A DNA stretch of 64,000 bases from a virus (IMGVR_UViG_3300028805_000037:64001-128000), one strand, 5' to 3'; counted from the first letter of the stretch, positions 16,644 to 45,357 are shown. A program made the numbers and translations. Notes: generated by a model from the letters alone, not told the origin.

Positions 16644-16655
16644 ATGTTTATCCTC

Positions 16656-17900
16656 CTAATTAATTTTATTTATAAAGTCTTCTACTTCTTTTAAATTCCA
16701 AAATACTTTATAATTTAAGCTATTTTCTCTAGCTATTTTTAATTTTTGTGGATCTAATATAGTCCACACATATATTGCATTTATGTAAAATTGTATACCC
16801 TTACTTTTCCAAAACTCTAATATCTTCTGATGTTCTAAATTATCTTTATCGAATGACTCAGGACCGTGTGTAAAGTGTCCATTATACTCAATATATAAGT
16901 CTTTTGATTTAATATAAAAGTCACAACGATATGGATAAACTTTTGACCTATATTGACGTTCTATATCATCTTTAGTGAATTTAGTTAAGAGAAGTTGGTA
17001 AACTTTTTCTTCTGGTTCTGATGTACTAAATGTATTATTCCGTTTCTTTGTATTATATATTCTCTCTTGAATTTCATTAATTCGTAATCTATAATCTTTA
17101 GACTTCATATAACTACTTACACCATAACGTTTTAAACAAGTTTGCTTAGATTTTTGTTTATTCTCTTCCAATTGCAAATTTGTCTCTACACCATACTTTT
17201 CTAAATAACTTTGCCTAACTTTATTTTTAAAATCTTCAGATTTATTTTTATGTATATTTGCACAACTAATACAACAAAATTTTCCATACCCATTTATATC
17301 TGAAAACTTAATTTGCTTTCCACACTGCTTACAAGTAAAAACTTTATCTAGAGGAATATTTTTATGTAGCCTATAACGTAATTCAGATTTTGTTAAGTTA
17401 TATCTATTAAGAATATCTTTTACTTCCTGAACTGTAAAATACTTCTCCAAGTCTTGTAACTTCACTTTTCTATGTTTACGTATATAATCTTTCAATCCTT
17501 GAAAATTTAACTGTATTGGTTTTTTATTAAGACGTTTTTGCTTACGTGTTTCTAATAATTTATCTTTACAAACTTGTGTTTTTAAATAATTATCTACACC
17601 ATATTTCTTTAAACAAGTTTGTTTGCATCTATCTTTATAAACTTCTGTTTTACTATAATTGTCAACACCATATTTCTCTAAGCAGGCTTGCTTTACCTTA
17701 TCTCTATGTTCCAGGGACTTATTTATTATTGTCAAAGTACAAACTTTTGAACAAGCTGTAATAATATTCTTACCAACTTTTAAATACTTTATACGCGTTT
17801 TAATTTGCTTATCTGTATAATGAAATATTTTACCACAACATTGACAGACCTGTTCTTTAAATAATTCTGGAAATTGTTCTTTGACTTCCTGTTTACACAT
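16656..17900 (-). CDS. Free-standing Zn-ribbon / 23-aa-repeat / Vsr-EDxHD-like endonuclease (copy A)
   Basis: Two CxxCGK...CxxxC modules, 4 KQxCLxKYGV-type repeats, C-terminal S..E...RQY.S..YPY.CDFYI...DLYIEYNGHFTH...W...D..K. Confidence 0.8.
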   Translation of the reverse strand: MCKQEVKEQFPELFKEQVCQCCGKIFHYTDKQIKTRIKYLKVGKNIITACSKVCTLTIINKSLEHRDKVKQACLEKYGVDNYSKTEVYKDRCKQTCLKKYGVDNYLKTQVCKDKLLETRKQKRLNKKPIQLNFQGLKDYIRKHRKVKLQDLEKYFTVQEVKDILNRYNLTKSELRYRLHKNIPLDKVFTCKQCGKQIKFSDINGYGKFCCISCANIHKNKSEDFKNKVRQSYLEKYGVETNLQLEENKQKSKQTCLKRYGVSSYMKSKDYRLRINEIQERIYNTKKRNNTFSTSEPEEKVYQLLLTKFTKDDIERQYRSKVYPYRCDFYIKSKDLYIEYNGHFTHGPESFDKDNLEHQKILEFWKSKGIQFYINAIYVWTILDPQKLKIARENSLNYKVFWNLKEVEDFINKIN

Positions 17901-17990
17901 ATTATTTATCCTCCGATAAATAACTCAAAACAAAATATGGCAGGAGTGTGAGTTGCACTCTTTTCCCGTTGCAATCGGTAGCCATATAAA
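17901..17990 (-). ncRNA. Structured RNA leader (3-way junction + pseudoknot + SD hairpin), copy 1
   Basis: AUAUGGC-UA-CCG[7]CGG-GAAAA-GAGUG[CAACUCA]CACUC-CU-GCCAUAU...UGAGUUA-UUUAUC[GGAG]GAUAAA; covaries with copy 2. Confidence 0.8.
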
Positions 17991-18008
17991 CCTTATATTA
18001 AGTATGAT

Positions 18009-18027
18009 TATGATTATTTTGTCAAGG
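18009..18027 (-). promoter_or_regulatory. Conserved upstream element, copy 2 (CCTTGACA-AAAT-AATCATA)
   Basis: One mismatch to the consensus; lies just upstream of RNA leader copy 1. Confidence 0.7.
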
Positions 18028-18050
18028 ATGGTTTTTGAAGATTTACAATA

Positions 18051-18635
18051 TCATCTGTTTCCAACAATTCCTGCAGCACGAGCTCTGCAATTCTGTATTA
18101 TTTTAATATCATCAACATTATCGACACCAAATTCAATGTTGGAATCCAAAAACCAAACACCGTAAATATACCAGGTTTTTGTTAATAACTGATCGCTACT
18201 TGTTTTATCTTCATCATCAGGGCAAATTAAATTTATTTTTATTAATAAAGGTCTTGTCTGTTTCGATATATCTAAACTATCATCTACATCTGAATAAAAT
18301 TCATCTGATACCATTGAATCATAAAGAACAATTCTATCTAAAGACAAATCATAGCCAGGTAACCCAGGATAAGATTCTACCGGTCTACCTGCAGTTTTAT
18401 AATCAAGTTCTCTCCAAATATTTAATTGTCTTTCATTTGTAATCTCTAAATTTTGGATTGCACCAATCTGTTTTCCATTAGCAGCAGCTTCAACAAGTCT
18501 ATTATATAATTCTGTAGGTTTTGTAAAATCTGTACCTGTAAAATTAAATGGCACACTATATATTTCTATATAGGCTTTGTATGCTGTTTTTAAACCCTTT
18601 ATTAGACTGTTTTTATAATCTCCAGTAACTGCCAT
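18051..18635 (-). CDS. Tail tube protein paralog 1
   Basis: IGAIQNL.I...RQL..WRELD..TAGRPVE.YPGLP.Y.L.LDRIVLY; IYGVWF; first tube gene after the sheath. Confidence 0.8.
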   Translation of the reverse strand: MAVTGDYKNSLIKGLKTAYKAYIEIYSVPFNFTGTDFTKPTELYNRLVEAAANGKQIGAIQNLEITNERQLNIWRELDYKTAGRPVESYPGLPGYDLSLDRIVLYDSMVSDEFYSDVDDSLDISKQTRPLLIKINLICPDDEDKTSSDQLLTKTWYIYGVWFLDSNIEFGVDNVDDIKIIQNCRARAAGIVGNR

Positions 18636-18647
18636 ATATTATCCTCC

Positions 18648-19901
18648 TTAATTAATTTTTCTAATCCAATCTTCAACTTCCTCTATATTCCAAAATATCT
18701 TGTAATTCAATTTATTCTTTTTAAATGTTTCTAATTTTCTCGCATCTAAATCTGTCCAAACATAGATTGCAGTTCGAAAGAACTTGCTTTTTTTAGATTT
18801 AACTTGCCAACTGCTCAATATATTAAGATGTTCTAAATTATTCTTATCAAAAGATTCTTTTCCGTGTGTCCAATGCCCATTATATTCAATATATAAATCT
18901 AGGCTCTTAATATAAAAATCACATTGATAAGGATATAATTCATTTTTATATTGTCTAATAATATCTTCTTTACCAAACTTAGTTAATAATAGTTGATACG
19001 TTTTTTCTTCAAATTTAGATTTATTATATGTATTATTTTGCTTCTTAGTACTCCATTGTTTCTCTAAGATTATAGCTTTATGTTCTTTATAGAAATCCCT
19101 ATATTCTTGAGTTTGTGTATAATTTTCTACACCATATCTTTCTAGGTTTGTTTTGCGCTGCTTTTCATTAATCTTTTCCACATCTAATTTATATTTCTTT
19201 GATTTCTGAAAACTCGTTGCTCCAAACTTATCTAAACAGGTCTGCTTTACCTTATCTTTATATTCTTTGGTTTGTGAATAATAATCTACACCATACTTAT
19301 CTTTACATGTCTGGTTTGATTTTTTAATATAGTCGTCTGTCTGCGTGTAATGTTTTTTTCCGAAATTCTCCAAGTTTGTTAATTCTCTTTGCTGTTGAAT
19401 CAAATATTTATTGTCCTGCATATATTTTCTATGCTGATCTGATTGAGAATAATATTCAGTTCCATACTTCTCTAAGCATGTCTGTTTATATTTATCTTTA
19501 TAATCTTGTGTTTTTAAATAACTATCTACACCATATTTATTTAAACATGTTTGTTTTATTTTATCTCGACATTCTTTTGTTTTTGCATAACTTGTAGTAT
19601 TATATTTTCTTAAACAAGTTTGTTTAACTTTATTTACATGTTCTTGTGATTTATTCATACAACTCATTGAACAATATGTTTGATATCCACCATGCGTACG
19701 TTTAAATTTAATAATCTTTCCACAAGTTTTACATTTGAATACTTTATCAAAAGAAATATCATGTTTAATTCTATAACATAATTCTTTTATGGATAACTTA
19801 TAAAAAATTGCTGTAGCTTCAACTTCTTTCGTTATGTATTTTTTTATAACTTTGTTATAAAATTGTTTATGACTTTTTATATACTTAACTAATTCTTCCA
19901 T
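18648..19901 (-). CDS. Free-standing Zn-ribbon / 23-aa-repeat / Vsr-EDxHD-like endonuclease (copy B)
   Basis: CKTCGK...YCSMSC, about 7 KQTCLxKYG-type repeats, CDFYI...DLYIEYNGHWTH...WTDLD..K. Confidence 0.8.
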   Translation of the reverse strand: MEELVKYIKSHKQFYNKVIKKYITKEVEATAIFYKLSIKELCYRIKHDISFDKVFKCKTCGKIIKFKRTHGGYQTYCSMSCMNKSQEHVNKVKQTCLRKYNTTSYAKTKECRDKIKQTCLNKYGVDSYLKTQDYKDKYKQTCLEKYGTEYYSQSDQHRKYMQDNKYLIQQQRELTNLENFGKKHYTQTDDYIKKSNQTCKDKYGVDYYSQTKEYKDKVKQTCLDKFGATSFQKSKKYKLDVEKINEKQRKTNLERYGVENYTQTQEYRDFYKEHKAIILEKQWSTKKQNNTYNKSKFEEKTYQLLLTKFGKEDIIRQYKNELYPYQCDFYIKSLDLYIEYNGHWTHGKESFDKNNLEHLNILSSWQVKSKKSKFFRTAIYVWTDLDARKLETFKKNKLNYKIFWNIEEVEDWIRKIN

Positions 19902-19990
19902 CTCTATACTCCTATAGATTAACTCAATTTTTATATTTACGGCAGGGTAGTGAGTTGCTACCTTTTCGGTTGATCTGACCTAGCCGTATT
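19902..19990 (-). ncRNA. Structured RNA leader, copy 2
   Basis: UACGGC-UA-GGU[7]ACC-GAAAA-GGUAG[CAACUCA]CUACC-CU-GCCGUA...UGAGUUA-A-UCUAUA[GGAG]UAUAGA-G-AUG. Confidence 0.8.
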
Positions 19991-20001
19991 TATTTTTAAT
20001 A

Positions 20002-22056
20002 TTAAGCGTTTTGGAAAGTTACTCCGAATGTTACTAAAATGTAGTTAACATCAGGTGTTGGATATATTCTAAATGATACATTAATTTGATTTGGATAATT
20101 TTGATCTTGCGCAATTACTAAGTTCGTATACGAATAAATATCGTTGTTTGCTAGGAAACTTGAAAGTATAGTATTAACTGTAGCTGTCATTTCTGATATT
20201 GTAGCTGCTCCAACAAATCTTGTATTTATATATGCTTTATCTAAAGCAAGTCTTAATGTATTTGATATAACGTCTTTTATTTTTGTAATCTTAATTTCAG
20301 ATTTTACATAATCACCTGTAGATGTTGAGAGTGCATGTCTTATTTTTGCTACTGATGTTCCTTCTGCGCCTTCAAGAACTAAACATCCATAAGATGCTAA
20401 TACATTCTTTTCTTCTCTTGTATACCTATCATTTACAGTAACATTCGATAATGTTTTACCTGTTATAGGTTCACCACAAGTAAAGTTATTATTACAGATA
20501 ATACCAGCAATAGCTGCTGCAGCATACATACCATTAGCAACTGCTACTGTTCCTGTATCTAACGTAACCGATACTTGACCTGGTGTTACATAAACAACTC
20601 TTGCAGAATTTGCAGACGCAGCATCTTTTTTATAAGTTTCAATTGCGGTATCATAATCTTCCGTTTCAATTAAAGCGTTATTTGAAACAATCGCAATTCT
20701 TTCTTTTCTTTCAAGAGTTGAACTCATATTCTCAACATGTGTTTTGCACATACTTATAATCTGAGCCATCGTTATACTGTTATCAGGATCGTTCTCAATT
20801 TCAAACGGTGATATCATAGGCAATATACAATATGCATTTATTTTAGTAGCTTGTCTAAGAGCAGTAGATAATCCAGCTGCATCTATAAGTCCAGTTGTTT
20901 CATTAACTTCAGGCTGAATACAATAGAAAACTCTTGCACCATTATCATAAGCAACTTGTGCACCTGCAGAAATTGTATTCTCAGCAGAAGGCTCACCATA
21001 AACAGAATAAATACTTGAGAGTCTTGTATAAGATTTTGGTTCTCTATCTGCAGTATTTTTTGCTACTGTATAACTAACTGTGATTTTATACTTCCCATCT
21101 GGACCTTCAACTGGCATATCCCCATCTGGAGCTTTCCATAATAATACAGAATTTTCTACTGCAAAAAAATCTTTCTCTGAATTATCATAAACTCTACTAC
21201 TTATTGCATCTACAGCTTCAGAAGGTGCTACTACAATTTCTGGTTGCAATTGTGCAGAATAATAAGTAGCATTAGGATCTACAATTTTCCAATTCGTATT
21301 TAAATAATTTATATTTGCTTCACTAGGTGAAGTATGATCTTTTATACATTCATAAAATAAAGCATTTAAATATATAAAATCTCCAACAACATAATCTGTT
21401 TCAGGAGTCCATACTTTATAATGTATCGTTGTTTCTTCTGTATCAGTACTTATCCAATAATCAAATATAGCTTCATCTACTCCGTCTTCTAAAACACTAG
21501 CATTTTCATCTAACCATGGAGTTACTAAACTACTTACTGCTACATCTTCTGTAATCTCAGAAGCGTTAGCTTCTAACCAATCAGCAACAGGTTCGGTAAC
21601 TGTACCTGCAGTTGTAACACTATAATATTTATCATTATAAAATAATATATCACCTACTTCACAAGTAGTTCCATCTTCAGGATCTATTGCTGCTGGGATA
21701 GTTCCTTCTGAATTAACAATATAATAACTTTCTCCAAAACTTATTACTTGTGATTGACTATAAAACTCTCCTGGTATAGCTTGTGCAGCTTCAGGTGTAC
21801 TCGTTGTTGTAACTTTATAATAAGTATCATTGTAATAAACTATAGAACCTGCTTCATATTCTGTACCAATTACAGGTACAGTAGGTCTTTCAATTGGAGG
21901 TAATAACTCCAATAGTTCATTACTTATTGATTTTGTTTCTTTACCTTTACCGATAATACATACAGATAATAAACCTGTATTAACGTCTGTAGATATATCG
22001 TCATTGATTACGACATATGTACCTGGCTCTGTGTAATTATTTGTAAATGATGGCAT
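20002..22056 (-). CDS. Tail sheath protein with inserted CBM5/12-like repeats
   Basis: N-terminal YTEPGTYV; C-terminal ERIAIV, AAAAIAG, IRHALST, I.VSFRIYP...VNYI.VTF sheath motifs; four Y..GD.(I/V).Y....Y-like repeats. Confidence 0.9.
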   Translation of the reverse strand: MPSFTNNYTEPGTYVVINDDISTDVNTGLLSVCIIGKGKETKSISNELLELLPPIERPTVPVIGTEYEAGSIVYYNDTYYKVTTTSTPEAAQAIPGEFYSQSQVISFGESYYIVNSEGTIPAAIDPEDGTTCEVGDILFYNDKYYSVTTAGTVTEPVADWLEANASEITEDVAVSSLVTPWLDENASVLEDGVDEAIFDYWISTDTEETTIHYKVWTPETDYVVGDFIYLNALFYECIKDHTSPSEANINYLNTNWKIVDPNATYYSAQLQPEIVVAPSEAVDAISSRVYDNSEKDFFAVENSVLLWKAPDGDMPVEGPDGKYKITVSYTVAKNTADREPKSYTRLSSIYSVYGEPSAENTISAGAQVAYDNGARVFYCIQPEVNETTGLIDAAGLSTALRQATKINAYCILPMISPFEIENDPDNSITMAQIISMCKTHVENMSSTLERKERIAIVSNNALIETEDYDTAIETYKKDAASANSARVVYVTPGQVSVTLDTGTVAVANGMYAAAAIAGIICNNNFTCGEPITGKTLSNVTVNDRYTREEKNVLASYGCLVLEGAEGTSVAKIRHALSTSTGDYVKSEIKITKIKDVISNTLRLALDKAYINTRFVGAATISEMTATVNTILSSFLANNDIYSYTNLVIAQDQNYPNQINVSFRIYPTPDVNYILVTFGVTFQNA

Positions 22057-22071
22057 TTATATATCCTCCAA

Positions 22072-22278
22072 TTAATAAATTTTTATTATTCTAATTAATT
22101 TTTTTCCTGCATATTCTTTAACTTGCTTTGTATAAGCTACAACCTTGATCTCATTTGTTTTCAAATTAAAGTCTTTATAACATAAATCTCCAAACGTAAT
22201 ATTTTGTATTAACGCTTGTTTAACAGTAGGTTGTATTGTAGAAACAGACTCAACCACTTTACTTTTCCTTCTAACCAT
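22072..22278 (-). CDS. Small hypothetical protein (start MVRRK)
   Basis: GGAGG SD upstream of ATG at 22278. Confidence 0.6.
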   Translation of the reverse strand: MVRRKSKVVESVSTIQPTVKQALIQNITFGDLCYKDFNLKTNEIKVVAYTKQVKEYAGKKLIRIIKIY

Positions 22279-23533
22279 TACTCTCCTCCGTATAAAAATT
22301 GCCAAAATTAAAATATTTATTTACCAATTTTAAACTGCATTCTTTTCGTTTATTGTTTTCCTTCACTACAACATACTTTAAATGACTCATTGTTATTGCA
22401 TTGTATCTCTTATTATTTATTACTACTAAATCTTTTGGTTGTATTTTATATCTTTGCTTTCTAATACCTGGCTTAAAACCTCTCCTGTTACACTGTAAAG
22501 ATCTATTGTTTCTATGTTTTTGTTTTAATTCTATAGGTTTCACTCTGTTTTGAACACTACCACCTGCTATACAAAAAGCATCGTTATAATGTGTTTTCTT
22601 TAACCCTAATTCTAGTCTTTGCTGCTTCGTTATATATCCAAATGTTTCGTACATATCAGGTATATCTTTTTGAAATCTTTTATGTATAATTGACATAAAT
22701 GTATTTGATTTATACTCTTTACTACTTTTTCTGATACTAAATTTATTTTTATGTAAATCTTTATGACATTTACTGCATAAAGTTATTAGATTGTCTGGTC
22801 TATCAGTACCACCCTGACTTCTAAATTTTATGTGATGAACTTCTAATCTTGTGTTTTGTTTACCGCAATGCTGACAAGTTCTTTTATCTCTTGTTAATAC
22901 ATATTGTTTTACATTCTCAAACTCCAATTGTTTTCCTTGTTGATATTCTTTACCTTTAATATTAAGATTTTGTATTTTTTGTATATCAAAATTTGCTGTT
23001 TCTATTATCACATTATTGGTAGGAAGTATTAATTTAATTCGTTTTATAAGCTCTAAATGTGTTTGATAACGTCTCTCTATAGAAGGTGGTAACCAACCAA
23101 CATGTCTTTTCCTATTATTAAATCTAGATTCTCTATACCAATGATGCCTACATCTTCTTCCTTTTCTATACAACTTTCTCTCTAATAATCTCATTTTAGT
23201 TTTATTATCCAAAACCAAAGTACCACTTATTAGCTCTTTCTTACTACTTACCGCACTAAACCCAATGTTCTCATAACCGCTATCAATACCTAGTGTAACT
23301 TCTTGTTTACAGTCTCTCGTTTGAACCAACATCTGAATAACAAAGAAAGGATATGTTTTAACTATTCTTGCTAAACCTTTCTTTATCAATCGTTTAGCTT
23401 TACAAGGTGTTGTTGGCATTAAAGGTTGCCCTTTTACATTGAGGACGAAAACATAAGTTTTCCTCTCAATCCTGTTAGGCTCAGGTAGATTCACATCGGA
23501 GTTGTTACAAGTCAGAGTATCTCTTCTACACAC
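22271..23533 (-). CDS. iscB: IscB RNA-guided endonuclease (PLMP, split RuvC, HNH); start codon uncertain
   Basis: GQPLMPT; RuvC-I LGIDSG; Arg-rich bridge helix; RuvC-II IIETANFD; HNH CQHCG..LEVHHI....GGTD...NL.TLC..CH; RuvC-III HYNDAFCI. Confidence 0.95.
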   Translation of the reverse strand: MCRRDTLTCNNSDVNLPEPNRIERKTYVFVLNVKGQPLMPTTPCKAKRLIKKGLARIVKTYPFFVIQMLVQTRDCKQEVTLGIDSGYENIGFSAVSSKKELISGTLVLDNKTKMRLLERKLYRKGRRCRHHWYRESRFNNRKRHVGWLPPSIERRYQTHLELIKRIKLILPTNNVIIETANFDIQKIQNLNIKGKEYQQGKQLEFENVKQYVLTRDKRTCQHCGKQNTRLEVHHIKFRSQGGTDRPDNLITLCSKCHKDLHKNKFSIRKSSKEYKSNTFMSIIHKRFQKDIPDMYETFGYITKQQRLELGLKKTHYNDAFCIAGGSVQNRVKPIELKQKHRNNRSLQCNRRGFKPGIRKQRYKIQPKDLVVINNKRYNAITMSHLKYVVVKENNKRKECSLKLVNKYFNFGNFYTEESNG

Positions 23534-23714
23534 TGTGCCTTTAGGCTCGTTTTAATGTAGAAGTTATAAAGCTACGAACTTGTGAAGCATCCGTAGGTAT
23601 GTTCTTTTTCTTTCCTTGTAACTGCTGTTTTAACATTACTGTTATAACCTCCTAATCAGCTCTTTCGTTGTAATTCTCATTACAAACCGATAACTTTAAT
23701 TATCGGTAGCTGAC
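22290..23714 (-). mobile_element. Non-autonomous IS200/IS605-family IscB (OMEGA) element; right end approximate
   Basis: omegaRNA + iscB with no tnpA; left end overlaps the last codons of the upstream gene. Confidence 0.75.
23460..23714 (-). ncRNA. omegaRNA / HEARO-type RNA of IscB
   Basis: 5' GTCAGCTACC...AGCTGATTAG closing stem, internal hairpin ACCGATAAT/GTTATCGGT, HEARO-like ACCTACGGATGCTTCACAAGT and CCGATGTGAA segments. Confidence 0.85.
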
Positions 23715-24760
23715 ACGTCCAGTTCAACTGGAATATTTTTAATTAATGCATAGATTGATTTATCAATATAAAAAGAATAATTTGTGACACAAGGAACAGT
23801 TACTGTATTTTTATAAATAACTTTATTATCAAACATTTCTTGTGACTCACCTGAAACATTTTCACCTGAATATGTAAAGTATTTTATTAATTCAGGTTTT
23901 ACTACATGTCGAATATACAAAACAAGTAAGTCTGTAATCCTTTCTCTATCTTGACTACTTCTTGCAAATACTTCAAATTTAATTTCAACATTTAGAGGTG
24001 CTTGAACAAAATCACCTGTATAAATACAATCACTTCTATTTGCTATATATGATACAAAATAATTATTAGGTTCTTCTATATTCCAAACTAAAGTTCTATC
24101 ATTAGGTGTTATATATACTTCTTGCTTATTAAAGTATTGTTTTATAAACTTTGTATTATCATTAGGGTCAACTATATAATTATAAACTTCAGTTAAACCA
24201 CTTGAAGTTGCATTAAACTCTAATTGTGTAGGTGTATCACCTTTTATTTTATATTCTGATATTATAGGTGTTGTTGGTGTACCATCATCAAACGTTGTAT
24301 AAGTGGCATAATATAAATCTGGTTTTACACCTTCATTCCAAGTAAAAATACCTGTTGTATAATTAAACTCAAACTCAGAACCAACATTATAATTTATAAC
24401 TTGATAAGATACTTCACCGTTTTCATATATAGGATTTAAAGTATAAACATTTTCTAAACTACCATTTAATATTTTATATCTAACTTTATCATTTTGTATA
24501 CATTCATTATATACTTTATTAACCTGCTTAACAACTTCTTGCCCTAAGTATCTCAGACTCGCATCACCATTACCTGCAGAAATGGTTATCATAGGAACAT
24601 TATAAACTCTATTAGGAGTTTCTTTATATATCCTTATTTTACTCTTTCTTTCATCTGAATTATATCTATATTCTTTAGGAGTAATATCTGCACTAAAAAT
24701 AACTCTTAAATACTTTTCCCAAAGAGCTTTAATAGTATTTGTATATCTAATAACTGCCAT
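23696..24760 (-). CDS. Putative tail terminator / tail completion protein
   Basis: Y.Y.SD...SKI.I....P.....P.ITI and FEVFARS..DRERITD motifs; upstream of the sheath. Confidence 0.65.
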   Translation of the reverse strand: MAVIRYTNTIKALWEKYLRVIFSADITPKEYRYNSDERKSKIRIYKETPNRVYNVPMITISAGNGDASLRYLGQEVVKQVNKVYNECIQNDKVRYKILNGSLENVYTLNPIYENGEVSYQVINYNVGSEFEFNYTTGIFTWNEGVKPDLYYATYTTFDDGTPTTPIISEYKIKGDTPTQLEFNATSSGLTEVYNYIVDPNDNTKFIKQYFNKQEVYITPNDRTLVWNIEEPNNYFVSYIANRSDCIYTGDFVQAPLNVEIKFEVFARSSQDRERITDLLVLYIRHVVKPELIKYFTYSGENVSGESQEMFDNKVIYKNTVTVPCVTNYSFYIDKSIYALIKNIPVELDVSATDN

Positions 24761-24762
24761 AA

Positions 24763-27671: not shown

Positions 27672-27701
27672 ACTATCACCACTATTTAAATTTAGAATAA
27701 T

Positions 27702-27720
27702 TATGATAAAATTGTCAAGG
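27702..27720 (-). promoter_or_regulatory. Conserved upstream element, copy 3 (CCTTGACA-ATTT-TATCATA)
   Basis: Exact consensus. Confidence 0.75.
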
Positions 27721-28119: not shown

Positions 28120-28129
28120 TTAATTTACC

Positions 28130-29269: not shown

Positions 29270-29291
29270 CTACTCCTCCTAGTAAATCTTA

Positions 29292-31538: not shown

Positions 31539-31558
31539 ATAAACCTCAAAAATTTAAT

Positions 31559-36104: not shown

Positions 36105-36117
36105 TGAAACCCTCTTT

Positions 36118-37621: not shown

Positions 37622-37651
37622 ATATAAAAACTCCTATTGTTTTACTCATAT

Positions 37652-37670
37652 TATGATATAAATGTCAAGG
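37652..37670 (-). promoter_or_regulatory. Conserved upstream element, copy 4 (CCTTGACA-TTTA-TATCATA)
   Basis: Exact consensus. Confidence 0.75.
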
Positions 37671-37672
37671 GT

Positions 37673-38677
37673 TTATTCAGTAATATATTTCCATTTATAA
37701 CCATAAGCAGATTTTCTTTTATTTTGACAACATAATGATATTTTACCACAACAATTTTTTGCGTTAATACCTAAAGCATTGCACGCTTCTTTTAAAGAAT
37801 TGTACTTAGCTTTAACTTCACCATCTATTGTATATTGTACCACTGCTTTTCTGTAAGGGGATTGCATCTTATTATTTATAAAATCTAAGCGTTCTTGAAT
37901 ACTATTTCCCTTATATAACCAAATATATTTATATGCAGATGATTGACTACCTTCGCAACTTGCACTTATGCAGCGCCTAACAGTCATTAAGTTCTTGTTT
38001 AATTTTGAGTTAAAAACTTTTGCAGCTTCTGTTATTGTAGAATATATCTTAACTAACTTACCGTCTAAAGTATACTGTGCTACTTCTCTTGTAATAGAAC
38101 TTAAATGTAAATCATGAACTTTATGTACTCGTTTAAGTCTATCTTCTATATTATTATCATACAACCAAATATAACCACCAGCTGTAGTGTATTCTCCGCG
38201 ACAACACAAGTCTATTGCTTTTACTCCAGTAGCTCTTCTGGCGTCAGACATACTATACCAAGTCTTTATAAAATTTCCTTGAAGATCATATTGAAATACT
38301 TTCTTTGCAACTGGACTTTTAAAACCTTTATTTACTCCAATATTAATATCACTTAATTTTTTACGTGTCTCATATGAAACTTCTCGGCTATTTGCAATTC
38401 CGCCATGATCTATATTATAACCAAACTCTCTTTGATCACTTTTATATAACTTTATTAACTCCTTTTCTTTCTGTGAAGCTTCATCATAAGATAAATTACT
38501 AAATAAAATTTCATGTTTTATGTTATTCCAACCATATTTATTAATCGCATATGTTAAATAAGAGTTAGTTTTATATGCACGCCCTTTACGCCAACGTCTT
38601 TCAACGTTTTGTCTTGTAACACCTATATAAATCTTATTTGATGGAGTTGTAAATTTATATACTTTATAATTATTCAT
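37673..38677 (-). CDS. GIY-YIG homing endonuclease with three NUMOD1/IENR1-like repeats
   Basis: YKVY....PSNKIYIG.T.....RRW..G; E..LI...GYN; 3x V.QY..DG...K.Y.S..EA.........I...C.......GY.W.Y. Confidence 0.9.
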   Translation of the reverse strand: MNNYKVYKFTTPSNKIYIGVTRQNVERRWRKGRAYKTNSYLTYAINKYGWNNIKHEILFSNLSYDEASQKEKELIKLYKSDQREFGYNIDHGGIANSREVSYETRKKLSDINIGVNKGFKSPVAKKVFQYDLQGNFIKTWYSMSDARRATGVKAIDLCCRGEYTTAGGYIWLYDNNIEDRLKRVHKVHDLHLSSITREVAQYTLDGKLVKIYSTITEAAKVFNSKLNKNLMTVRRCISASCEGSQSSAYKYIWLYKGNSIQERLDFINNKMQSPYRKAVVQYTIDGEVKAKYNSLKEACNALGINAKNCCGKISLCCQNKRKSAYGYKWKYITE

Positions 38678-38683
38678 TTTTAT

Positions 38684-38712
38684 ATTATATCAAATTTATA
38701 TTGAAAAGTCAA
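38684..38712 (-). promoter_or_regulatory. Sigma70-type promoter, leaderless (TTGACT-17-TATAAT-6-ATG)
   Basis: Near-consensus hexamers, extended -10 TG, no SD before the ATG. Confidence 0.75.
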
Positions 38713-38719
38713 CGAAATT

Positions 38720-39919
38720 TTAACGTCCAATGGCATTAAAAAGGTTACTGATAGCTCCTAATATATTTCCTGAAAGTCTTCCTGAAAGTGAAATATTTAA
38801 AGGTACTGAGCCTACAGCCGCGCCACTTTGTATATAATGTAGTTTCGCTACATCAATTAATTTATCATAGTAAGCAGTAGCTTTATCTATTGCATTCTGT
38901 ATCTTCGCACCTCTATCAATTGTAATAGATACACCAGAATCAGTGTAGCTAACATCTGTAAATGCAATACCTAAATAATGAACCATTAAAGTATATATAG
39001 CACTTCCTACCATAAGAACAGATTCTAATATTTCAGGTAATGTTTCTATTGTAAAATATGTAACCGGAGATTTTATATTTAAAGATTCCAATGCAAATTT
39101 AATACCCGCACGAATTTCATCATCAGTTGCACAATTTGTTATCCAATTTGATAACCATATCTTTAAATAATTTACAAGTCTTTGTTCTTTCGGAGTCAAT
39201 GACTTTCTAGGTAAAAAGAATCTAGACTCATATGTTTTATCTGCATTTACATATTTTATAATATAATAATAGGAATCTTTACATCTAATATCAATTGTCG
39301 GATCTGTCCATTTATTAACCCAATAACCATTAATCTGTGAATTAATTTCAGATATAACTTGGTTTTTAACATAAGGATTCTTAGAATCATAATTAACACT
39401 ATTGCTTATAACATCTGTAGAAAGCTCAGAACTTACATAAACAATAGGTAATTCAGTCATATTGAGAATTAAATCACCTACATTAAAATTCATTCTATGC
39501 CAACCTGGTTTTAATTGACCATACTGAACATTATTATAAATAACTTTATCATCTAAACAAAGTCTATAATTTCCGTTCTCATCTACAATTGAAAAAAGTT
39601 CTACCTTCTCTGGTTCTTGTGCTCCCAAAGTAAGTAAAACAGATTTACCACCTGTATATGTCAATCCTTGTAAGTATGCATCTATATCTGCATTCTTATT
39701 AAAACTTATATCCCTACATAACTCATCTTGTACAAAAGGAATCGGATGTAGATTTGTTGAAATCTCTACATCTGTTCTTACTAGATCATAACCAAAAGTC
39801 TCATGTCTAGATCTATATATTCTAACATAAGGATAAAGTATATTACCATTATCATCCAATGCAGATGTAATTGTATCGTCTGGACACCATGATATTTCAA
39901 CTGGTAACCTGAGTGTCAT
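38720..39919 (-). CDS. Head-tail adaptor / neck protein
   Basis: C-terminal D.EI...I..AL..LN..SP.TYF, F.D.SYTDSGVSITIDR typical of large-phage adaptors. Confidence 0.65.
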   Translation of the reverse strand: MTLRLPVEISWCPDDTITSALDDNGNILYPYVRIYRSRHETFGYDLVRTDVEISTNLHPIPFVQDELCRDISFNKNADIDAYLQGLTYTGGKSVLLTLGAQEPEKVELFSIVDENGNYRLCLDDKVIYNNVQYGQLKPGWHRMNFNVGDLILNMTELPIVYVSSELSTDVISNSVNYDSKNPYVKNQVISEINSQINGYWVNKWTDPTIDIRCKDSYYYIIKYVNADKTYESRFFLPRKSLTPKEQRLVNYLKIWLSNWITNCATDDEIRAGIKFALESLNIKSPVTYFTIETLPEILESVLMVGSAIYTLMVHYLGIAFTDVSYTDSGVSITIDRGAKIQNAIDKATAYYDKLIDVAKLHYIQSGAAVGSVPLNISLSGRLSGNILGAISNLFNAIGR

Positions 39920-39928
39920 TAAAACCTC

Positions 39929-40402
39929 CTACTTATTAAGTGACTCTAAATAATAAAATATTTTTATAGATAAAGCTTCTACCAATGTATTAAATTCAGA
40001 AATATCATATAACTTTGTCTGACTAACAAAAGGACATATTAGATATCTTTTTTCTGTGTTTTCTTTTATACTATGATAATTATCTTTATCTACTTCACTA
40101 ATAGTTACATCATATACTTTATAGTTATTATCTGCATATATTTTTGCAAATTTTTTAAAAGCACCTTCTATCAAATCTGCTTTTATAACATCATAAAATC
40201 TATCAGAAACTTTATTATTTGATACGTCATTTAAACAGTCATATATTACTTTTTGTATATACTGTACATTCTTATCTTTTAGCTTCTGTAATTTATCTTT
40301 AAAACTAATCTCTCTAACTAAAGTAGGGTAATAAACATTTAGGTCTTCTGTACCTAAAGGTAAGTCTAATTGAGTTTCAGCTTTAATAAACCACCTAGTC
40401 AT
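39929..40402 (-). CDS. Hypothetical protein, N-terminus MTRWFIKA
   Basis: ORF; shared N-terminal tag. Confidence 0.6.
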   Translation of the reverse strand: MTRWFIKAETQLDLPLGTEDLNVYYPTLVREISFKDKLQKLKDKNVQYIQKVIYDCLNDVSNNKVSDRFYDVIKADLIEGAFKKFAKIYADNNYKVYDVTISEVDKDNYHSIKENTEKRYLICPFVSQTKLYDISEFNTLVEALSIKIFYYLESLNK

Positions 40403-40420
40403 TTTTATTTTCCTATAAAT

Positions 40421-40609
40421 TTATTTTACTTCTTCAGCTATTATTGTATTTATATCTGTATTTGGAAATCTATAACAAAATATACTTTTAGCTTCTTGTT
40501 CATTATCTGCTTCAATAGGATGTATTTTAGGTCTAACATAATGACCATTAGCTAATTGAACTTTTATTATATACTTTTTTAAAGCAGACGCTTTTAACCA
40601 TCTAGTCAT
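40421..40609 (-). CDS. Small hypothetical protein, N-terminus MTRWLKAS
   Basis: ORF with AGGAG SD; shared N-terminal tag. Confidence 0.6.
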   Translation of the reverse strand: MTRWLKASALKKYIIKVQLANGHYVRPKIHPIEADNEQEAKSIFCYRFPNTDINTIIAEEVK

Positions 40610-40618
40610 TATCAACTC

Positions 40619-41050
40619 CTATTTAACAGTTTTAACTGCCAATACATAATCTCCATTGGAATCTTTAACTGCTTTAAGTTTTACCCACCTTCTAGTATAC
40701 TCATCCCACCCGTAAATGTGCTGGTTCTTTCCGACAGAATCTTTCTCAAACAAAGGTAATACTTCTGAAGGATATACTTTTATATTTACATCAAACGTTT
40801 TAAAATCAAAAACAAATATATATGTTTTATTTGCATCTAGCTTATTTATCTGGTGATCAAGCACAACTTGAACTGTCTGCGTTACTTGATCTACTCCAAT
40901 TGTATAAACTAAAGGGTTTTTCTTTTCCTTATCTTCTAAATTATAAATCTTCAAATCTTCAAGTTTAATACCTGACACCGCATTATCATTAAATAAAAAT
41001 GAGATATTATTACTTGTCCTTCTAAAAATTCTTAAATTAATTCCTTTCAT
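40619..41050 (-). CDS. Hypothetical protein
   Basis: ORF with AAGGAG SD. Confidence 0.55.
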   Translation of the reverse strand: MKGINLRIFRRTSNNISFLFNDNAVSGIKLEDLKIYNLEDKEKKNPLVYTIGVDQVTQTVQVVLDHQINKLDANKTYIFVFDFKTFDVNIKVYPSEVLPLFEKDSVGKNQHIYGWDEYTRRWVKLKAVKDSNGDYVLAVKTVK

Positions 41051-41068
41051 TTTTCATTTTCTCCTTTA

Positions 41069-41785
41069 TTATTTCAACTCCTCTAATCTTTGATTAATTA
41101 TATTTAATATAGTTTTGACTTTTGTATACTTACTTATCTTAAGTAATAGTTCTTTATCTTCAAGTTTAGCTATAAATAACTTTCTATCATTAGCTTTCAT
41201 CTTTAATATCTTAGCAACGTCTTCTGGAACTTCCTCTATAACTTCTTCTTTCTTATTTAGTTCCTCTAAATCTTTTGCTTCATCTTTCAATACATCTGTA
41301 ATCTCATCTGTTTTTTCTTTTATAATCTCATTAACAGATTTTAATTGTCCTTCACCTGGTTTTTTACCTGGAAGAACTACAAACCCTGCTTCTATAGAAG
41401 CTTCATCTTTTATATTACCTTCTTTAACTACAACTTCAGATTGTTTTTCTGCTTCTATTTTTACAGATACGGGTTCTACATTACCTTCGTTTAATATATC
41501 TGCAGGAATTTCATCTTTAAATGTTCCACCTTTAGTAACTACAACTATATCTTCTTGAGTTTCTTTTTTAATTACTTGTGGTTGTTCAACCTTTGTAATT
41601 GAAGCTGGTTTGAAATAGTCATCCTGCTCAACTACCGTTATATTACCTTTTCTAATTTCTTCAACTACTGCCTTTACTTGTCTTAAGTCATTACACTTCA
41701 AAATATCAAATGTAACAATCATTCCTGGCTCAAATCTAATTCCTGCCAAACTCCAAACTCTGTTCATGTTTGATCTAATTTTCAT
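41069..41785 (-). CDS. Hypothetical protein
   Basis: ORF with AAGGAG SD. Confidence 0.55.
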   Translation of the reverse strand: MKIRSNMNRVWSLAGIRFEPGMIVTFDILKCNDLRQVKAVVEEIRKGNITVVEQDDYFKPASITKVEQPQVIKKETQEDIVVVTKGGTFKDEIPADILNEGNVEPVSVKIEAEKQSEVVVKEGNIKDEASIEAGFVVLPGKKPGEGQLKSVNEIIKEKTDEITDVLKDEAKDLEELNKKEEVIEEVPEDVAKILKMKANDRKLFIAKLEDKELLLKISKYTKVKTILNIINQRLEELK

Positions 41786-41807
41786 TTTTTCATTTTTCTC
41801 CTTTATT

Positions 41808-42275
41808 CTATTTTACTTCTGTATATTTTTTCCCATCTATTGTTGTTAAATTCTGCAAATACTTATCTTTAAGTTTAAATGGTATCTTGACCATCCCTAT
41901 ATGAATCCAGAACTTTCCAGATATTTTCTCCTTAATCAGCTGCCGATAACAAATATCAATCTTACCTTTTCTAATATCATCAAATACTTCATCAACTGTC
42001 TTACCTTTAACTATAAAGTCTACTGCTTCACCTAAACAATGTTGGCTGGTTTTATTTCCGCCAACTCTTTCATTTAATGCCTTTCCTCTAAATCCACTTG
42101 TAACTGTTATAGGTACTTTATAGTAATTACGAATTGGCTGAAGTATATAATTGGCAAGTATATATAAGTTATTCACATAAGGTTTCACTTCCTCATTTTG
42201 TTTGGGAAGTAAATCCTTATGTGAAGTTGTTAGTAGTTCATCGAGAGTGAAATTGGGTGAGAGTTGTGTTGTCAT
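41808..42275 (-). CDS. Endolysin, peptidase M15A family
   Basis: LSPNFTLDEL; SGFR...LN..VGG..TSQH..GEAVD; WIH zinc ligands. Confidence 0.9.
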   Translation of the reverse strand: MTTQLSPNFTLDELLTTSHKDLLPKQNEEVKPYVNNLYILANYILQPIRNYYKVPITVTSGFRGKALNERVGGNKTSQHCLGEAVDFIVKGKTVDEVFDDIRKGKIDICYRQLIKEKISGKFWIHIGMVKIPFKLKDKYLQNLTTIDGKKYTEVK

Positions 42276-42283
42276 TTAATACT

Positions 42284-42646
42284 CTATATATTCTTAAGGA
42301 TGTACTTAACATCTCTATTTATCTCATCTAAAGCTGCTCTTGTTTCTTTTTGATTATCTGAAAGTTGTTGCTTTATTTCTTTTAATTCTGTTTGCATCAC
42401 GCTTAAGTCTTTATTTATAATAAGTTTTTCAGTTTCAAGATCAGCTACCCGATACTTTATTTCCTCTACATCTTTCTCCATTGCATATACTTTTGTTGGT
42501 ACTGTTTCTGAAACTTTAAGATATGTTCCATATATAAATATTAAAACAGTTCCACTTATTACGATTGCCCAAACAATTGTCTTAACATCTTTTAAAAATT
42601 TTACGGTTTTCTTAAGCATGATATACTCCAAAAAGTTAAAGTTCAA
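42284..42646 (-). CDS. Single-TM + coiled-coil protein, putative holin/lysis protein
   Basis: TM segment IVWAIVISGTVLIFIYG; adjacent to the endolysin. Confidence 0.55.
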   Translation of the reverse strand: MNFNFLEYIMLKKTVKFLKDVKTIVWAIVISGTVLIFIYGTYLKVSETVPTKVYAMEKDVEEIKYRVADLETEKLIINKDLSVMQTELKEIKQQLSDNQKETRAALDEINRDVKYILKNI

Positions 42647-43058
42647 GTTTCCCTAAATTCTCATTTAATTTATTTGCTCTTATATTGACCTCTTCTAATG
42701 TAGGTATTATATTTTCCTGATATAAATACTGTGCCAATGACTCTAATTGAAACATATTATCAAATGAGTCAACTAAATCTTCTATATATTTAAGCTTGTC
42801 ACCTTTCATTTGAGGTTCAAGATCTGCTTTTTTACAAGCTTTCTCTTCTTCTTCTACTGCTTTATATAGCTCTTTTAAAAATAAGTCTTTTAATTTAAGA
42901 AATGCTTCCTTTCTATATTCACCTGTTATTAAAGGAATTCTATTTTGTTGGTAATATTCAGACTGTGTTGTGTCTACAATTGCTTCATTAATTGCTTCTT
43001 GTGATACTGTTCCTGTGTCTTTAATATCTTTTTCATTATTCATATTTTCATTCTCCAT
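42636..43058 (-). CDS. Hypothetical protein
   Basis: ORF downstream of the conserved element. Confidence 0.5.
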   Translation of the reverse strand: MENENMNNEKDIKDTGTVSQEAINEAIVDTTQSEYYQQNRIPLITGEYRKEAFLKLKDLFLKELYKAVEEEEKACKKADLEPQMKGDKLKYIEDLVDSFDNMFQLESLAQYLYQENIIPTLEEVNIRANKLNENLGKLEL

Positions 43059-43094
43059 AATAAATTAAATCTTATATCTATAACCTAGATATAA

Positions 43095-43113
43095 TATGAT
43101 AAAAATGTCAAGG
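43095..43113 (-). promoter_or_regulatory. Conserved upstream element, copy 5 (CCTTGACA-TTTT-TATCATA)
   Basis: Exact consensus; upstream of lysis genes. Confidence 0.75.
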
Positions 43114-43146
43114 GAAATTATTAGTATATTATTGTGGAATGCTTAT

Positions 43147-44073
43147 TTATAATGAATACTCTTTATACCATTTTGTACCATTACCTTCTCTATGTACAAA
43201 TAGTCCTGAGTTCTTTGCACCGCTTTTATATTTACTTTTTTTCATATCTACTTTATCTGGACCAAGAAATATATAATTTGAAGCTTCAATGTATTCTTTA
43301 ATAAGTTTACACCATGTATGAAAATCTAAATAATTTGTTTTATATTTATCATGTCTTTTATCTGGAGTACCTTCCCACTGTTCAGTATATGCAAACGGTG
43401 GACAACAGATAACAATTTTATCTGTTTTAACCTTCTGCGCAAGAACATCTCTTTGTGTCCAACCATAATATTTACAGAAATTTGAATTTATATCATAAGC
43501 TTCAATCTTTGGTTCCAAGTTGTGTTTCTTAAACCAACGTTTAGCTGCCTCTACAATTCCACCAAAACCTGCCATTGGAACATAAACGCCACAGCTTAAA
43601 TCAATTCCGCTTTCTTTTATAACTTTCTCAACATGACTTGGTTGCATTGCTCCAACTTTCGGGGCAATTTTTGCAATTGTAAATCTCATTAATATTTCTT
43701 TTGCCAATGCAGAAGGATCTGGTTCTTCACCTTTAAGGTAATCTATATCGTATATCTTTCCAAATGCACTATATACTCTTGCTACAAAATCCTGCTCTTT
43801 ACCATTTGCTTCAAGTTTATGCATTATATAGTAAAGATTATCAATAGCTTTCATCATTGATTTCCAATCATACCATGCTTGCTTCGGAGAAAATTTACCT
43901 TCAGTATGGCAATCCCAGATTGGATGGTTGGGAGGATATTTTTTTGTTCCAGGGAATTCCATACCATTAAAATAAGTTTCATATAAATCAGTGCTGTTAA
44001 CTCCCCAAAGAAACTCTTCTGGATGTTCCTTCTCATACTCTTCTAACCATTTTCTATCTTCATATATTCCCAT
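43147..44073 (-). CDS. SAM-dependent (amino) DNA methyltransferase-like protein
   Basis: Motif I-like VYVPMAGFGG, motif II AYDIN, motif IV-like CCPPF. Confidence 0.65.
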   Translation of the reverse strand: MGIYEDRKWLEEYEKEHPEEFLWGVNSTDLYETYFNGMEFPGTKKYPPNHPIWDCHTEGKFSPKQAWYDWKSMMKAIDNLYYIMHKLEANGKEQDFVARVYSAFGKIYDIDYLKGEEPDPSALAKEILMRFTIAKIAPKVGAMQPSHVEKVIKESGIDLSCGVYVPMAGFGGIVEAAKRWFKKHNLEPKIEAYDINSNFCKYYGWTQRDVLAQKVKTDKIVICCPPFAYTEQWEGTPDKRHDKYKTNYLDFHTWCKLIKEYIEASNYIFLGPDKVDMKKSKYKSGAKNSGLFVHREGNGTKWYKEYSL

Positions 44074-44104
44074 ACTACTTTCTCCTTCTCTTTATTCTAT
44101 TCCT

Positions 44105-44133
44105 ATTATAGTAAATTAAACTTAAGAAGTCAA
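44105..44133 (-). promoter_or_regulatory. Sigma70-type promoter (TTGACT-17-TATAAT) for the methyltransferase
   Basis: Near-consensus hexamers overlapping the end of the nuclease gene. Confidence 0.7.
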
Positions 44134-45357
44134 CCAATCTTTAAGTTCGTCTAGCGTATAAAATATCTTATAATTTAAATTATTTTTCTTAAAACATTCC
44201 AACTTTCTTACGTCTAAATCTGTCCAAGTGTAAATAAGTTGCTTGTATTTATTATTCCTTTTAAATTTATTAGCATGTAATTTAATATCTTCAAGTTCTT
44301 TTAAATGCTCAATATTATTTTTGTCAAAAGGCTTCCCATTATGAAAAAATCCAAAATGACATTCTATATAAAGATCTTTTTCGGGTATATAAAAGTCACA
44401 CTTAAATGGATACTTCTCAGATTTATACTGAAATATTACTTCTTTAAATTTTTGTTGTAACATTTTATATGCGTGCTTCTCAAGTTTAGAACTATTAAAT
44501 GTATGATTACGTTTTTGAGTTTGATAACGTTTTTCTTGTATCTCTGGTAATCTAGCTTTATACTCAGCACTTTCGCTATAACTCTCAACACCATATTTCT
44601 TTTTAAAAGTTTCTTTTCTTTTTGCTAAAATTTTATTAAATTTCTTTTTATAAACATCACTCTGTTCATAATATTCTGTACCATATTTCTCTAAACACGT
44701 CTGTTTATATTTATCTTTAAAATCTTTAAGTCTGTCTCTATAATCTTTACTTTTAGTATAATGATCTACTCCATACTTTTCTAAACAAGTCTGCTTCACT
44801 CTATTTTTATATTCATCTGTCTGTGTATAACTTTCCTTACCAAACTTCTTTATATTGGTTTGTTTAACTTTTTCTTTAAATTCTTTAGTTTTACTATAAT
44901 TATCAACCCTAAATTTCTTCAAGTACGCTTGTTTCTTTTTATCTTTCACAACACCGCTTTGATTTGGACTATCTGTATTATATTTCTGTTTCCAAGTTTC
45001 TAAAACTTTCTGATGTACGTTTTTATCCTGTAAAGTACAACTTACACCATAACGTTCTATATTCGTTGCTATTCTTTTCTTTATAGACTCACTTTGTGCA
45101 GAATGCTTTCCAGAACACTCACGACTACAGAAATCTTTATAATGATGTTTTCTATCAAAAACAATTTTTGTTCCACACTGTTTACAAAAAAACTGTTTAT
45201 CTAAGTCTATATTATTCTTTAAACGGAAGCATAACTCGTGAATTGTTAAATTATATTTAAATAATACTTCTTTAACATCACCTGTTAAGAAATTTTGTTC
45301 TATATACTTTAAATTATATTTTTTAGTTTGTTTTAAAAATTCAATCAATTTTTTCAT
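44122..45357 (-). CDS. Free-standing Zn-ribbon / 23-aa-repeat / Vsr-EDxHD-like endonuclease (copy C)
   Basis: CKQCG...FCSREC, about 7 repeats, QYKSEKYPFKCDFYIPEKDLYIECHFGFFH...WTDLD..K. Confidence 0.8.
   Translation of the reverse strand: MKKLIEFLKQTKKYNLKYIEQNFLTGDVKEVLFKYNLTIHELCFRLKNNIDLDKQFFCKQCGTKIVFDRKHHYKDFCSRECSGKHSAQSESIKKRIATNIERYGVSCTLQDKNVHQKVLETWKQKYNTDSPNQSGVVKDKKKQAYLKKFRVDNYSKTKEFKEKVKQTNIKKFGKESYTQTDEYKNRVKQTCLEKYGVDHYTKSKDYRDRLKDFKDKYKQTCLEKYGTEYYEQSDVYKKKFNKILAKRKETFKKKYGVESYSESAEYKARLPEIQEKRYQTQKRNHTFNSSKLEKHAYKMLQQKFKEVIFQYKSEKYPFKCDFYIPEKDLYIECHFGFFHNGKPFDKNNIEHLKELEDIKLHANKFKRNNKYKQLIYTWTDLDVRKLECFKKNNLNYKIFYTLDELKDWLTS

Follow-up and report, generated by a model that had tools for sequence, protein, structure and literature searches.

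Probable free-standing homing endonuclease genes with a string of 23-residue repeats and a Vsr-like nuclease domain in a 300-kb gut phage

Three intact paralogous genes, here called A, B and C, lie between structural genes of a 300-kb gut phage, in a 64,000-nucleotide window that covers bases 64001-128000 of the single 300,445-bp contig IMGVR_UViG_3300028805_000037. A first-pass annotation, made from the sequence alone, had described them as nucleases with an ELxxRLxxxIxxDK helical motif, a zinc ribbon, an array of repeats of about 23 amino acids (aa) and a C-terminal Vsr/EDxHD-like nuclease domain. All three genes are confirmed on the minus strand, the helical motif and the zinc ribbon are found in every copy, and the nuclease assignment is borne out by fold matches and invariant residues. 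A, B and C are probably free-standing homing endonuclease genes, and invasion, residence, decay and loss of such genes are all visible among relatives of this phage. The reading we favour, with a probability of about 0.7, is that the three proteins are homing endonucleases of the large DUF7487 family, in which small DNA-binding modules are arranged in a string together with one Vsr-like (EDxHD-type) nuclease, the array lending affinity and reach and the nuclease cutting near the insertion point.

In the mechanism that we propose, the basic repeat array would lie along the DNA and touch its backbone by means of residues conserved in every unit (Lys5, Lys7, Thr9, Lys13, Tyr14-Gly15 and Gln21), with some units adding contacts from variable residues. 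The array would supply affinity, reach and positioning over a long footprint while probably carrying little sequence information. In genomes without the gene, cleavage of a sequence close to the insertion point would fall to the nuclease domain, with the helical and zinc modules assisting, and repair from the nuclease-bearing genome would then copy the gene in.

Presence, absence and decay at exact intergenic sites

The relative IMG/VR UViG_3300032007_000095 (ODAI014804127.1) has a tube-2 protein 88% and a capsid protein 97% identical to their counterparts in the window. Its sheath, tube-2 and tube-1 genes follow one another at distances of 19 and 17 nucleotides (nt), its capsid gene is followed at once by the next gene, and it has neither A, B and C nor a 308-aa open reading frame (ORF) that accompanies C. 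B is missing from its site in relatives L004, L011, L009, L013 and L018, and a 94% ortholog occupies that site in L012. The site of A is empty in L004 and L011, and orthologs with identical architecture, 55-84% identical in sequence, are found there in L012, L013, L016 and L018. In the relative G001 (L006), which is without C and without the 308-aa ORF, the capsid gene is followed directly by a 135-aa ORF. Family members are also present in relatives at sites that are empty here, between a 144-aa ORF and Baseplate_J and between tube-1 and a 229-aa ORF, and P0004, which among family members on long contigs is the closest to B that was found, lies at a site that is empty in the window.

Decayed copies were found as well. 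In L009, the site of A holds a stub (L009:3914-4037) in which the leader, a start codon and the final ten codons are all that is left of an A-type gene. In the window, a remnant (R) recovered as tblastn fragments joins an N-terminal helical domain to the C-terminal tail of a nuclease, and its first 55 aa and last 49 aa are 100% and 88% identical to the two ends of P0054, an intact protein of 450 aa. Because P0054 occupies the same locus in the relative L014, after a 576-aa gene, R is, as judged from these alignments, the product of an internal deletion in a family member. Together, R and the stub of L009 point to decay by internal deletion. These occupied, empty and decayed sites in near-identical phages constitute ready substrates for the mapping of cleavage.

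The choice of sites was considered from two sides. The flanks of 14 insertions displayed no common target motif beyond a ribosome-binding site and a start codon. Of the located relatives that were compared, the gene whose nuclease domain comes nearest to that of B (77%) lies at another site, and the site of B has a different occupant in L016, a protein of 455 aa with three helical-plus-zinc units and about three repeats, which lies beside diverged tube-2 sequence and is 72% identical to B in the nuclease domain. These few cases fit nuclease-led and array-led targeting alike.

A genome-wide tblastn search revealed three short-form paralogs (D, E and F) in addition to A, B and C, as well as two long, Hef-like paralogs, G (622 aa) and H (558 aa), in which a zinc ribbon, repeats and nuclease core as in A-F are followed by a longer C-terminal region. 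The family therefore totals nine loci in this genome: six short forms, two long forms and the internally deleted remnant. A and B have in common a conserved structured leader with the Shine-Dalgarno sequence in a hairpin loop; in the predicted fold of the B leader, GGAG is placed in the loop just before the start codon. C has almost no leader, and has a terminator and its own promoter instead. At the other end of the genes, the structural gene that follows has its ribosome-binding site, GGAGG, within or right beside the 3' end of A and B (16644-16670 and 18636-18660) and of relatives in L007, L012 and L014, and several family members end in Gly-Gly codons that spell GGAGG. Since this signal is carried in the 3' end of the nuclease gene, expression of the downstream gene need not suffer from the insertion.

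The nine loci in one genome, the regulated leaders on some copies and the tight integration in which 3' ends provide the ribosome-binding site of a structural gene would also be expected of domesticated genes, kept to exclude competing phages or to degrade host DNA and not for homing. We regard domestication as improbable, given that presence and absence at exact sites among near-identical relatives, different occupants of one site and deletion remnants form the signature of selfish turnover, and that marker exclusion would be a by-product of homing in any case.

Nuclease domain and family membership

The structure of B was modelled by AlphaFold2 (AF2) with 99 homologs, giving a mean predicted local distance difference test (pLDDT) of 94 and a predicted template modelling score (pTM) of only 0.45, the latter being in accordance with modules that have no fixed mutual arrangement. 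A Foldseek search of the full model against the PDB gave weak rows (E>1), with Vsr and I-Bth0305I (3R3P) in the top three, and was followed by re-alignment of residues 294-417 with VIA-align. These residues aligned to Vsr (1cw0_A) with Z 8.8 over 105 residues at a root-mean-square deviation (rmsd) of 3.2, to the catalytic domain of I-Bth0305I (3r3p_B) with Z 7.6 over 87 of 98 residues at rmsd 2.8, and to a VRR_NUC domain with Z 7.4. Vsr and I-Bth0305I were the top rows against PDB chains, with the whole domain covered. Residues S295, E298, Y323, C327, D328, E339, H346, W382, D386 and K389 are invariant across 99 aligned relatives, and E298, D328, E339, H346 and D386 follow the same order as the EDxHD residues of I-Bth0305I and Vsr, in which the active sites are formed by D196, N208, H213 and D222 and by D51, H64, H69 and D97, respectively (PMC3239194). 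A composite Glu...Asp...His...Asp motif (E298, D328, H346 and D386, plus E339) is present. A, B and C look active, with conserved residues of catalytic type, and would be expected to cleave DNA. Prediction of a homodimer of the nuclease domain scored 0.00, which weighs neither way on dimerisation. Matches to nitrophorin in the PDB at E 0.003 were discarded as spurious.

The Pfam model DUF7487 (PF24308), which covers about five repeats and the first half of the nuclease domain, matched A, B and C with 63, 107 and 114 bits against a curated cut-off of 27, and matched the arrays with E-values from 4e-17 to 9e-33. In PHROGs the family is labelled 'homing endonuclease' (phrog_3339 and phrog_12131). 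A, B and C align only to positions ~14-317 of the 536 of phrog_3339 (E 2e-19, 2e-22 and 7e-18), the C-terminal part being absent, whereas H aligns to positions 13-533 (E 8e-98) and G to positions 110-451. Annotated Hef-like endonucleases of Acinetobacter phage Acj9, of Campylobacter phages and of a Dickeya phage (F-LimIII) were matched by G in tblastn. The nuclease core aligns with that of H (hhalign E 5.6e-5), and Vsr or DUF559 is found on 11-14% of one DUF7487 cluster of the ESM Atlas. Scanning of NCBIfam gave no match. Taylor et al. placed Hef-type enzymes in the EDxHD family (PMC3239194), and since H aligns with the core of A-C, these are filed as short-form Hef-like relatives: a sister group of the Hef-like enzymes within the Vsr-like superfamily, and not full Hef members. 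There is nothing unusual in the kind of gene: these are probable free-standing homing endonucleases within the Vsr-like class.

The family is large. A profile of the nuclease domain matched 3,967 cluster representatives (clustering at 50% identity) with E<=1e-3 and 2,340 with E<=1e-30, and a word-based search with B gave at least 5,633 significant matches among the 8,000 candidates listed. The phage records with matches include all Lak megaphages, at 5-9 places each, together with Dickeya, Campylobacter, Klebsiella, Lactococcus, Vibrio and Tenacibaculum phages, and related proteins are found in Acinetobacter phages too. With ~4,000 clusters at 50% identity the family is probably among the commonest of phage homing nucleases, and ranges from gut megaphages to culturable Dickeya, Campylobacter, Klebsiella and Acinetobacter phages, yet it is merely a domain of unknown function (DUF) in the catalogues: it is already listed in Pfam and PHROGs without a function, and is loosely annotated as 'Hef-like'. 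Literature searches on DUF7487, on Hef-like together with repeat and on EDxHD found no description of the repeat array. To our knowledge, I-Bth0305I is the only EDxHD homing endonuclease studied in depth, and for Hef we know only of reported cleavage of nrdB. The repeat module appears to be uncharacterised, although widespread, and structurally unprecedented.

When the B model was compared with BFVD, zinc-ribbon and nuclease proteins of Klosneuvirus, Marseillevirus and invertebrate iridescent virus 30 matched it in fold (E 1e-10 to 1e-12), a structural likeness which suggests that giant eukaryotic viruses have this architecture too.

The repeat array

In B the array is preceded by two small modules. 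Residues 1-52 form a domain of four helices (2-10, 16-22, 25-33 and 38-46, with pLDDT >94 in the AF2 model) that is conserved in all paralogs and is putatively of the helix-turn-helix (HTH) type, and the Cys4 ribbon that follows was matched weakly by Foldseek to zinc modules of the MYND, YacG and FCS types. Copy A has an extra N-terminal zinc ribbon with two repeats, followed by the usual helical domain, zinc ribbon and two repeats. The first-pass annotation had taken this for a duplicated block; the extra block is indeed there, but it is not recent, since it is kept in four relatives at 55-84% identity, and it is an old and stable trait of the A lineage.

A single-unit hidden Markov model (HMM) built from 16 clear copies recognised individual units of A, B and C with E-values from 1e-10 to 1e-15, with a prevailing spacing of exactly 23 residues. 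It counted four units in A (2+2), seven in B and, in C, five strong and two degenerate units, in agreement with the earlier estimate of about 4, 7 and 7. The variation in the residues that follow Tyr/Phe-Gly is as previously described, and the exact stretch that B and C have in common measures 17 residues, in unit 3 of B and unit 6 of C, these two units being 91% identical in aa and 81% in nt. When 789 units from 128 proteins were analysed, the consensus was EIKEKIKQTCLEKYGVENYSQSK. The best conserved positions are K5, K7, T9, L11, K13, Y14 and G15; the most variable, positions 6, 20, 2, 23, 18 and 19, are scattered and some are hydrophobic. Lys, Thr and Gln, which are typical of backbone contacts, are the best conserved residues.

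Each modelled unit has a long helix of 15 residues, then a loop of four residues at Tyr-Gly-Val and a short helix of three (pLDDT 97). Besides 23, spacings of 30, 34 and 19 are seen; at spacings of 30 or 34 the long helix is extended by two or three turns, and across the family the departures from 23 cluster at +7, +11 and -4, that is, at whole helical turns. It is the long helix that changes in length, and the unit ends keep their phase. The array modelled alone (B 52-275) had pLDDT 97 and pTM 0.66. A Foldseek search of the repeat-only model against the PDB matched the zinc ribbon and not the repeats, and an exhaustive VIA search of 48,161 chains gave a best Z of 3.4, none reaching Z 5, and matches longer than ~90 residues had rmsd >20 A.

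The number of units ranges from 0 to 13 among 257 sampled relatives, and whole units are inserted or deleted among the close relatives of B. In this genome, however, units are 36% identical in aa within and between proteins alike, and 56% identical in nt overall, an equal divergence that argues against concerted evolution or recent shuffling here. Shuffling of coarser modules is evident in the two zinc ribbons of A and in the three helical-plus-zinc units, with about three repeats, of the relative in L016.

In the ESM Atlas the fold of the array occurs in DUF7487 clusters only, where its partners, depending on the cluster, are Vsr/DUF559 domains, Mom/acetyltransferase domains (the long Hef form) or N6_N4 DNA methylases. 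The array is thus portable, and since a DNA substrate is the sole trait common to its partners, which is the strongest indirect argument, it is likely to be a portable DNA-binding module. The first-pass annotation had proposed a modular reader of DNA, and the DNA-binding part of that proposal is plausible in view of the net charge of +14 of the B array and of the fusions to two nuclease types and to DNA methyltransferases. In some family members the nuclease domain goes with an ordinary HTH_3 domain, or few if any units are detected beside it.

An array that does not bind DNA at all would be a rigid spacer, an oligomerisation rod or a binder of RNA, such as its own mRNA leader, or of a host protein. 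The confident prediction of a rod-like helical structure with a hydrophobic stripe, and helix lengths that shift by whole turns (+7, +11 and -4) as in a strut, would suit this idea, and the conserved structured leader of A and B could be an autoregulatory target; C and most relatives are without such a leader, though. Furthermore, the array is strongly basic, with surface Lys, Thr and Gln as its most conserved residues, and fusion to two nuclease types and to DNA methylases leaves only a DNA substrate as a shared feature. We therefore consider a role unconnected with DNA to be unlikely.

The other part of the earlier proposal, a reader resembling a transcription activator-like effector (TALE) that is retargeted by the shuffling of repeats, finds no support in the comparison of units, which are no more alike within proteins than between them, vary at scattered positions and are irregularly spaced. 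Such a reader would require each 23-aa unit to read one or a few bp by the residues after Tyr-Gly-Val, with gain, loss and exchange of units changing the target. Formally the unit does combine a conserved basic scaffold with a triplet of variable residues (positions 18-20), whole-unit insertions or deletions do distinguish close relatives that sit at different insertion sites, and the A lineage keeps both its array architecture and its site by the conserved 5' end of tube-1 across 55-84% identity. Nevertheless, the low identity of units (only ~36%) is joined by entropy spread over at least six positions, several of them in the hydrophobic core, by spacings of 30, 34 and 19 that break a fixed register, and by a position 19 in the triplet that is mostly Tyr or Pro, a structural feature; the nuclease domains with few or no units, or with HTH_3, are also difficult to reconcile with it. 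Solved alpha-solenoids, TALE among them, show no resemblance to the model (best Z 3.4), which is weak evidence, since a missing match does not exclude a fold. Taken together, this makes a TALE-like reader very unlikely. A programmable code is unlikely, and we would give very little weight to the related suggestion that tandem DUF7487 units read DNA in a modular way and so add a third natural repeat of this type to zinc fingers and TALE/PUF-type arrays, with variable residues at positions 18-20, and perhaps 23/1, acting on a fixed number of bp. Were it true, these nucleases and the array-bearing methylases would be naturally programmable, with a specificity that could be rewritten by exchange of units. 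An array that reads sequence would be a compact and tunable scaffold; in any case, a solution of how the array binds DNA would add a new nuclease-associated DNA-binding module.

Several points weigh against the reading that we prefer, a string of DNA-binding modules of low specificity joined to a Vsr-like nuclease. Each unit has seven hydrophobic positions, and the models suggest that the array packs as a folded rod, which may bind in a manner unlike that of isolated NUMOD3 helices; the variable triplet after Tyr-Gly-Val could still read bases. The Pfam NUMOD3 model (PF07460) had no match in the 300-kb genome at E<=1 and none in the scans of A, B and C, so that the analogy to NUMOD modules is functional and not a family assignment. 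As regards the nuclease, the correspondence of catalytic residues with Vsr and I-Bth0305I is one of residue order and not of coordinates, sequence searches of the PDB with full-length B and with a 51-sequence profile of the nuclease domain found neither Vsr nor I-Bth0305I, and Pfam Vsr (E 0.017) and DUF559 (E 0.021) were touched by only one of the 51 members. Our literature searches found no experiment on any DUF7487 protein.

Genomic setting and relation to known systems

The window has a GC content of ~28%, and its minus strand carries every long ORF. The structural genes that flank A, B and C are listed with the other features in Table 1; baseplate genes are also present in the window.

Table 1. 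Coordinates of the nuclease genes, their parts and neighbouring features (positions in the window)
Feature	Position	Strand	Remarks
Copy B, 417 aa	18648..19901	-	free-standing homing endonuclease gene between sheath and tube-2 genes; ORF, DUF7487 E 2e-30, phrog_3339 E 2e-22
B residues 1-52, small four-helix N-terminal domain	19746..19901	-	EL..R...I..DK motif; putatively HTH-like
B residues 57-81, Cys4 zinc ribbon	19659..19733	-	C57, C60, C77 and C81 nearly invariant
B residues 87-265, seven 23-aa repeats	19107..19643	-	spacings 23, 23, 34, 23, 23, 30; unit HMM E 3e-10 to 1e-13
B residues 294-417, Vsr-like nuclease domain	18651..19022	-	invariant E298, D328, E339, H346, D386, K389
Structured leader of B	19902..20001	-	aligned with A leader and L009 solo leader; folded
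Copy A, 414 aa	16656..17900	-	between tube-2 and tube-1
A, first zinc ribbon	17739-17846		
A, repeats 1-2	17574-17711		
A, helical domain	17343-17519		
A, second zinc ribbon	17262-17333		
A, repeats 3-4	17097-17234		
A, nuclease	16659-17024		
Promoter-proximal region and structured leader of A	17901..18050	-	
Copy C, 411 aa	44122..45357	-	after major-capsid-gene terminator
C, helical domain	45196-45357		
C, zinc ribbon	45112-45186		
C, repeats	44569-45090		2 degenerate + 5 clear
C, nuclease	44125-44493		
308-aa ORF co-inserted with C	43147..44073	-	absent along with C from G001
Remnant R, 107 aa	50412..50735	-	N-terminal helical domain fused to nuclease C-terminal tail
Major head protein	45451-46428		phrog_2522
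Tail sheath	20002-22056	-	phrog_2839
Two paralogous tube-like proteins	18051-18635 and 16041-16643		36% identical
IscB-type protein, 420 aa	22271-23714	-	RRXRR + HNH
334-aa ORF	37673-38677	-	three NUMOD1 domains

The 308-aa ORF beside C had no Pfam, PHROG or PDB match. Homologs that are 79-81% identical lie directly upstream of A-type nucleases in three relatives (L013:1950-2846, L016:2069-3004 and L018:2087-3004), where the site is not the one seen beside C; nucleases of this family repeatedly have the ORF next to them. It has glycine-rich and Pro-Pro-Phe motifs like those of N6-adenine methyltransferases, and an Atlas feature search led to N6-methylase-like clusters with a score of 0.87, which is a lead only. 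Judged by its sequence, the ORF may represent the pairing of a nuclease with a methylase, or a second mobile gene.

Other observations concern the same structural module and other nucleases of the window. A carbohydrate-binding module, CBM_5_12 (E 1e-8), is found in the N-terminal half of the tail sheath. An IscB-type protein is encoded immediately upstream of the gene for the sheath, and a HEARO RNA (RF02033, 87 bits) overlaps the 5' end of the IscB-type gene; by these matches, the pair is a putative RNA-guided nuclease inside the same structural module. The 334-aa ORF with three NUMOD1 domains is a classical modular homing endonuclease, unrelated to A-C.

Four known systems invite comparison. 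Units of TALE proteins are 33-35 aa long and near-identical except for two residues. The nucleases described here resemble TALE and the engineered TALE nucleases (TALENs) in having a variable number of tandem helical repeats joined to a nuclease, in this case naturally, and in the combination of a scaffold with variable positions; they differ in that the units have 23 aa, are ~36% identical and irregularly spaced, and are without a hypervariable pair.

Closer are Hef of phage U5 and the Hef-like free-standing enzymes, of which G and H are full-length members and with which A-F have the zinc ribbon, the repeats and the nuclease core in common. Examples are known from Acj9, from the Campylobacter CP220 group and from Dickeya phage LIMEstone1 (F-LimIII, VII, VIII and X) (PMC3296691, PMC2988022), and in LIMEstone1, as here, a Hef-like gene lies upstream of a tail tube gene. 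A, B and C are without the C-terminal extension of ~200 residues, which is Mom/acetyltransferase-like in the Atlas clusters, and a different helical tail ends their nuclease domain.

I-Bth0305I (PDB 3R3P) is likewise phage-borne and made of an N-terminal modular DNA-binding region and a C-terminal Vsr-like nuclease. It is intron-encoded and has two NUMOD2/HTH motifs, whereas A-C are free-standing and have a helical domain, a zinc ribbon and 2-13 DUF7487 repeats; furthermore, 9 residues separate the His from the last Asp in I-Bth0305I as against 40 here, and no match is found at the level of sequence. In I-Bth0305I most of the specificity is given by the nuclease dimer, and the N-terminal modules bind largely non-specifically (PMC3239194). 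Finally, the NUMOD3 helices of I-TevI, I-BmoI and I-HmuI are, like the units described here, short basic helical modules in tandem that are tethered to a phage homing nuclease. Tandem NUMOD3 helices, of which I-BmoI has three, track the minor groove and make extended contacts with little specificity (PMC3664794). The DUF7487 units are longer (23 aa), far more numerous and placed on the N-terminal side of the nuclease, and they have a hydrophobic stripe that suggests a folded rod. With NUMOD3 and I-Bth0305I as precedents, the variation in array and modules found here fits the beads-on-a-string logic of nuclease-associated modular domains.

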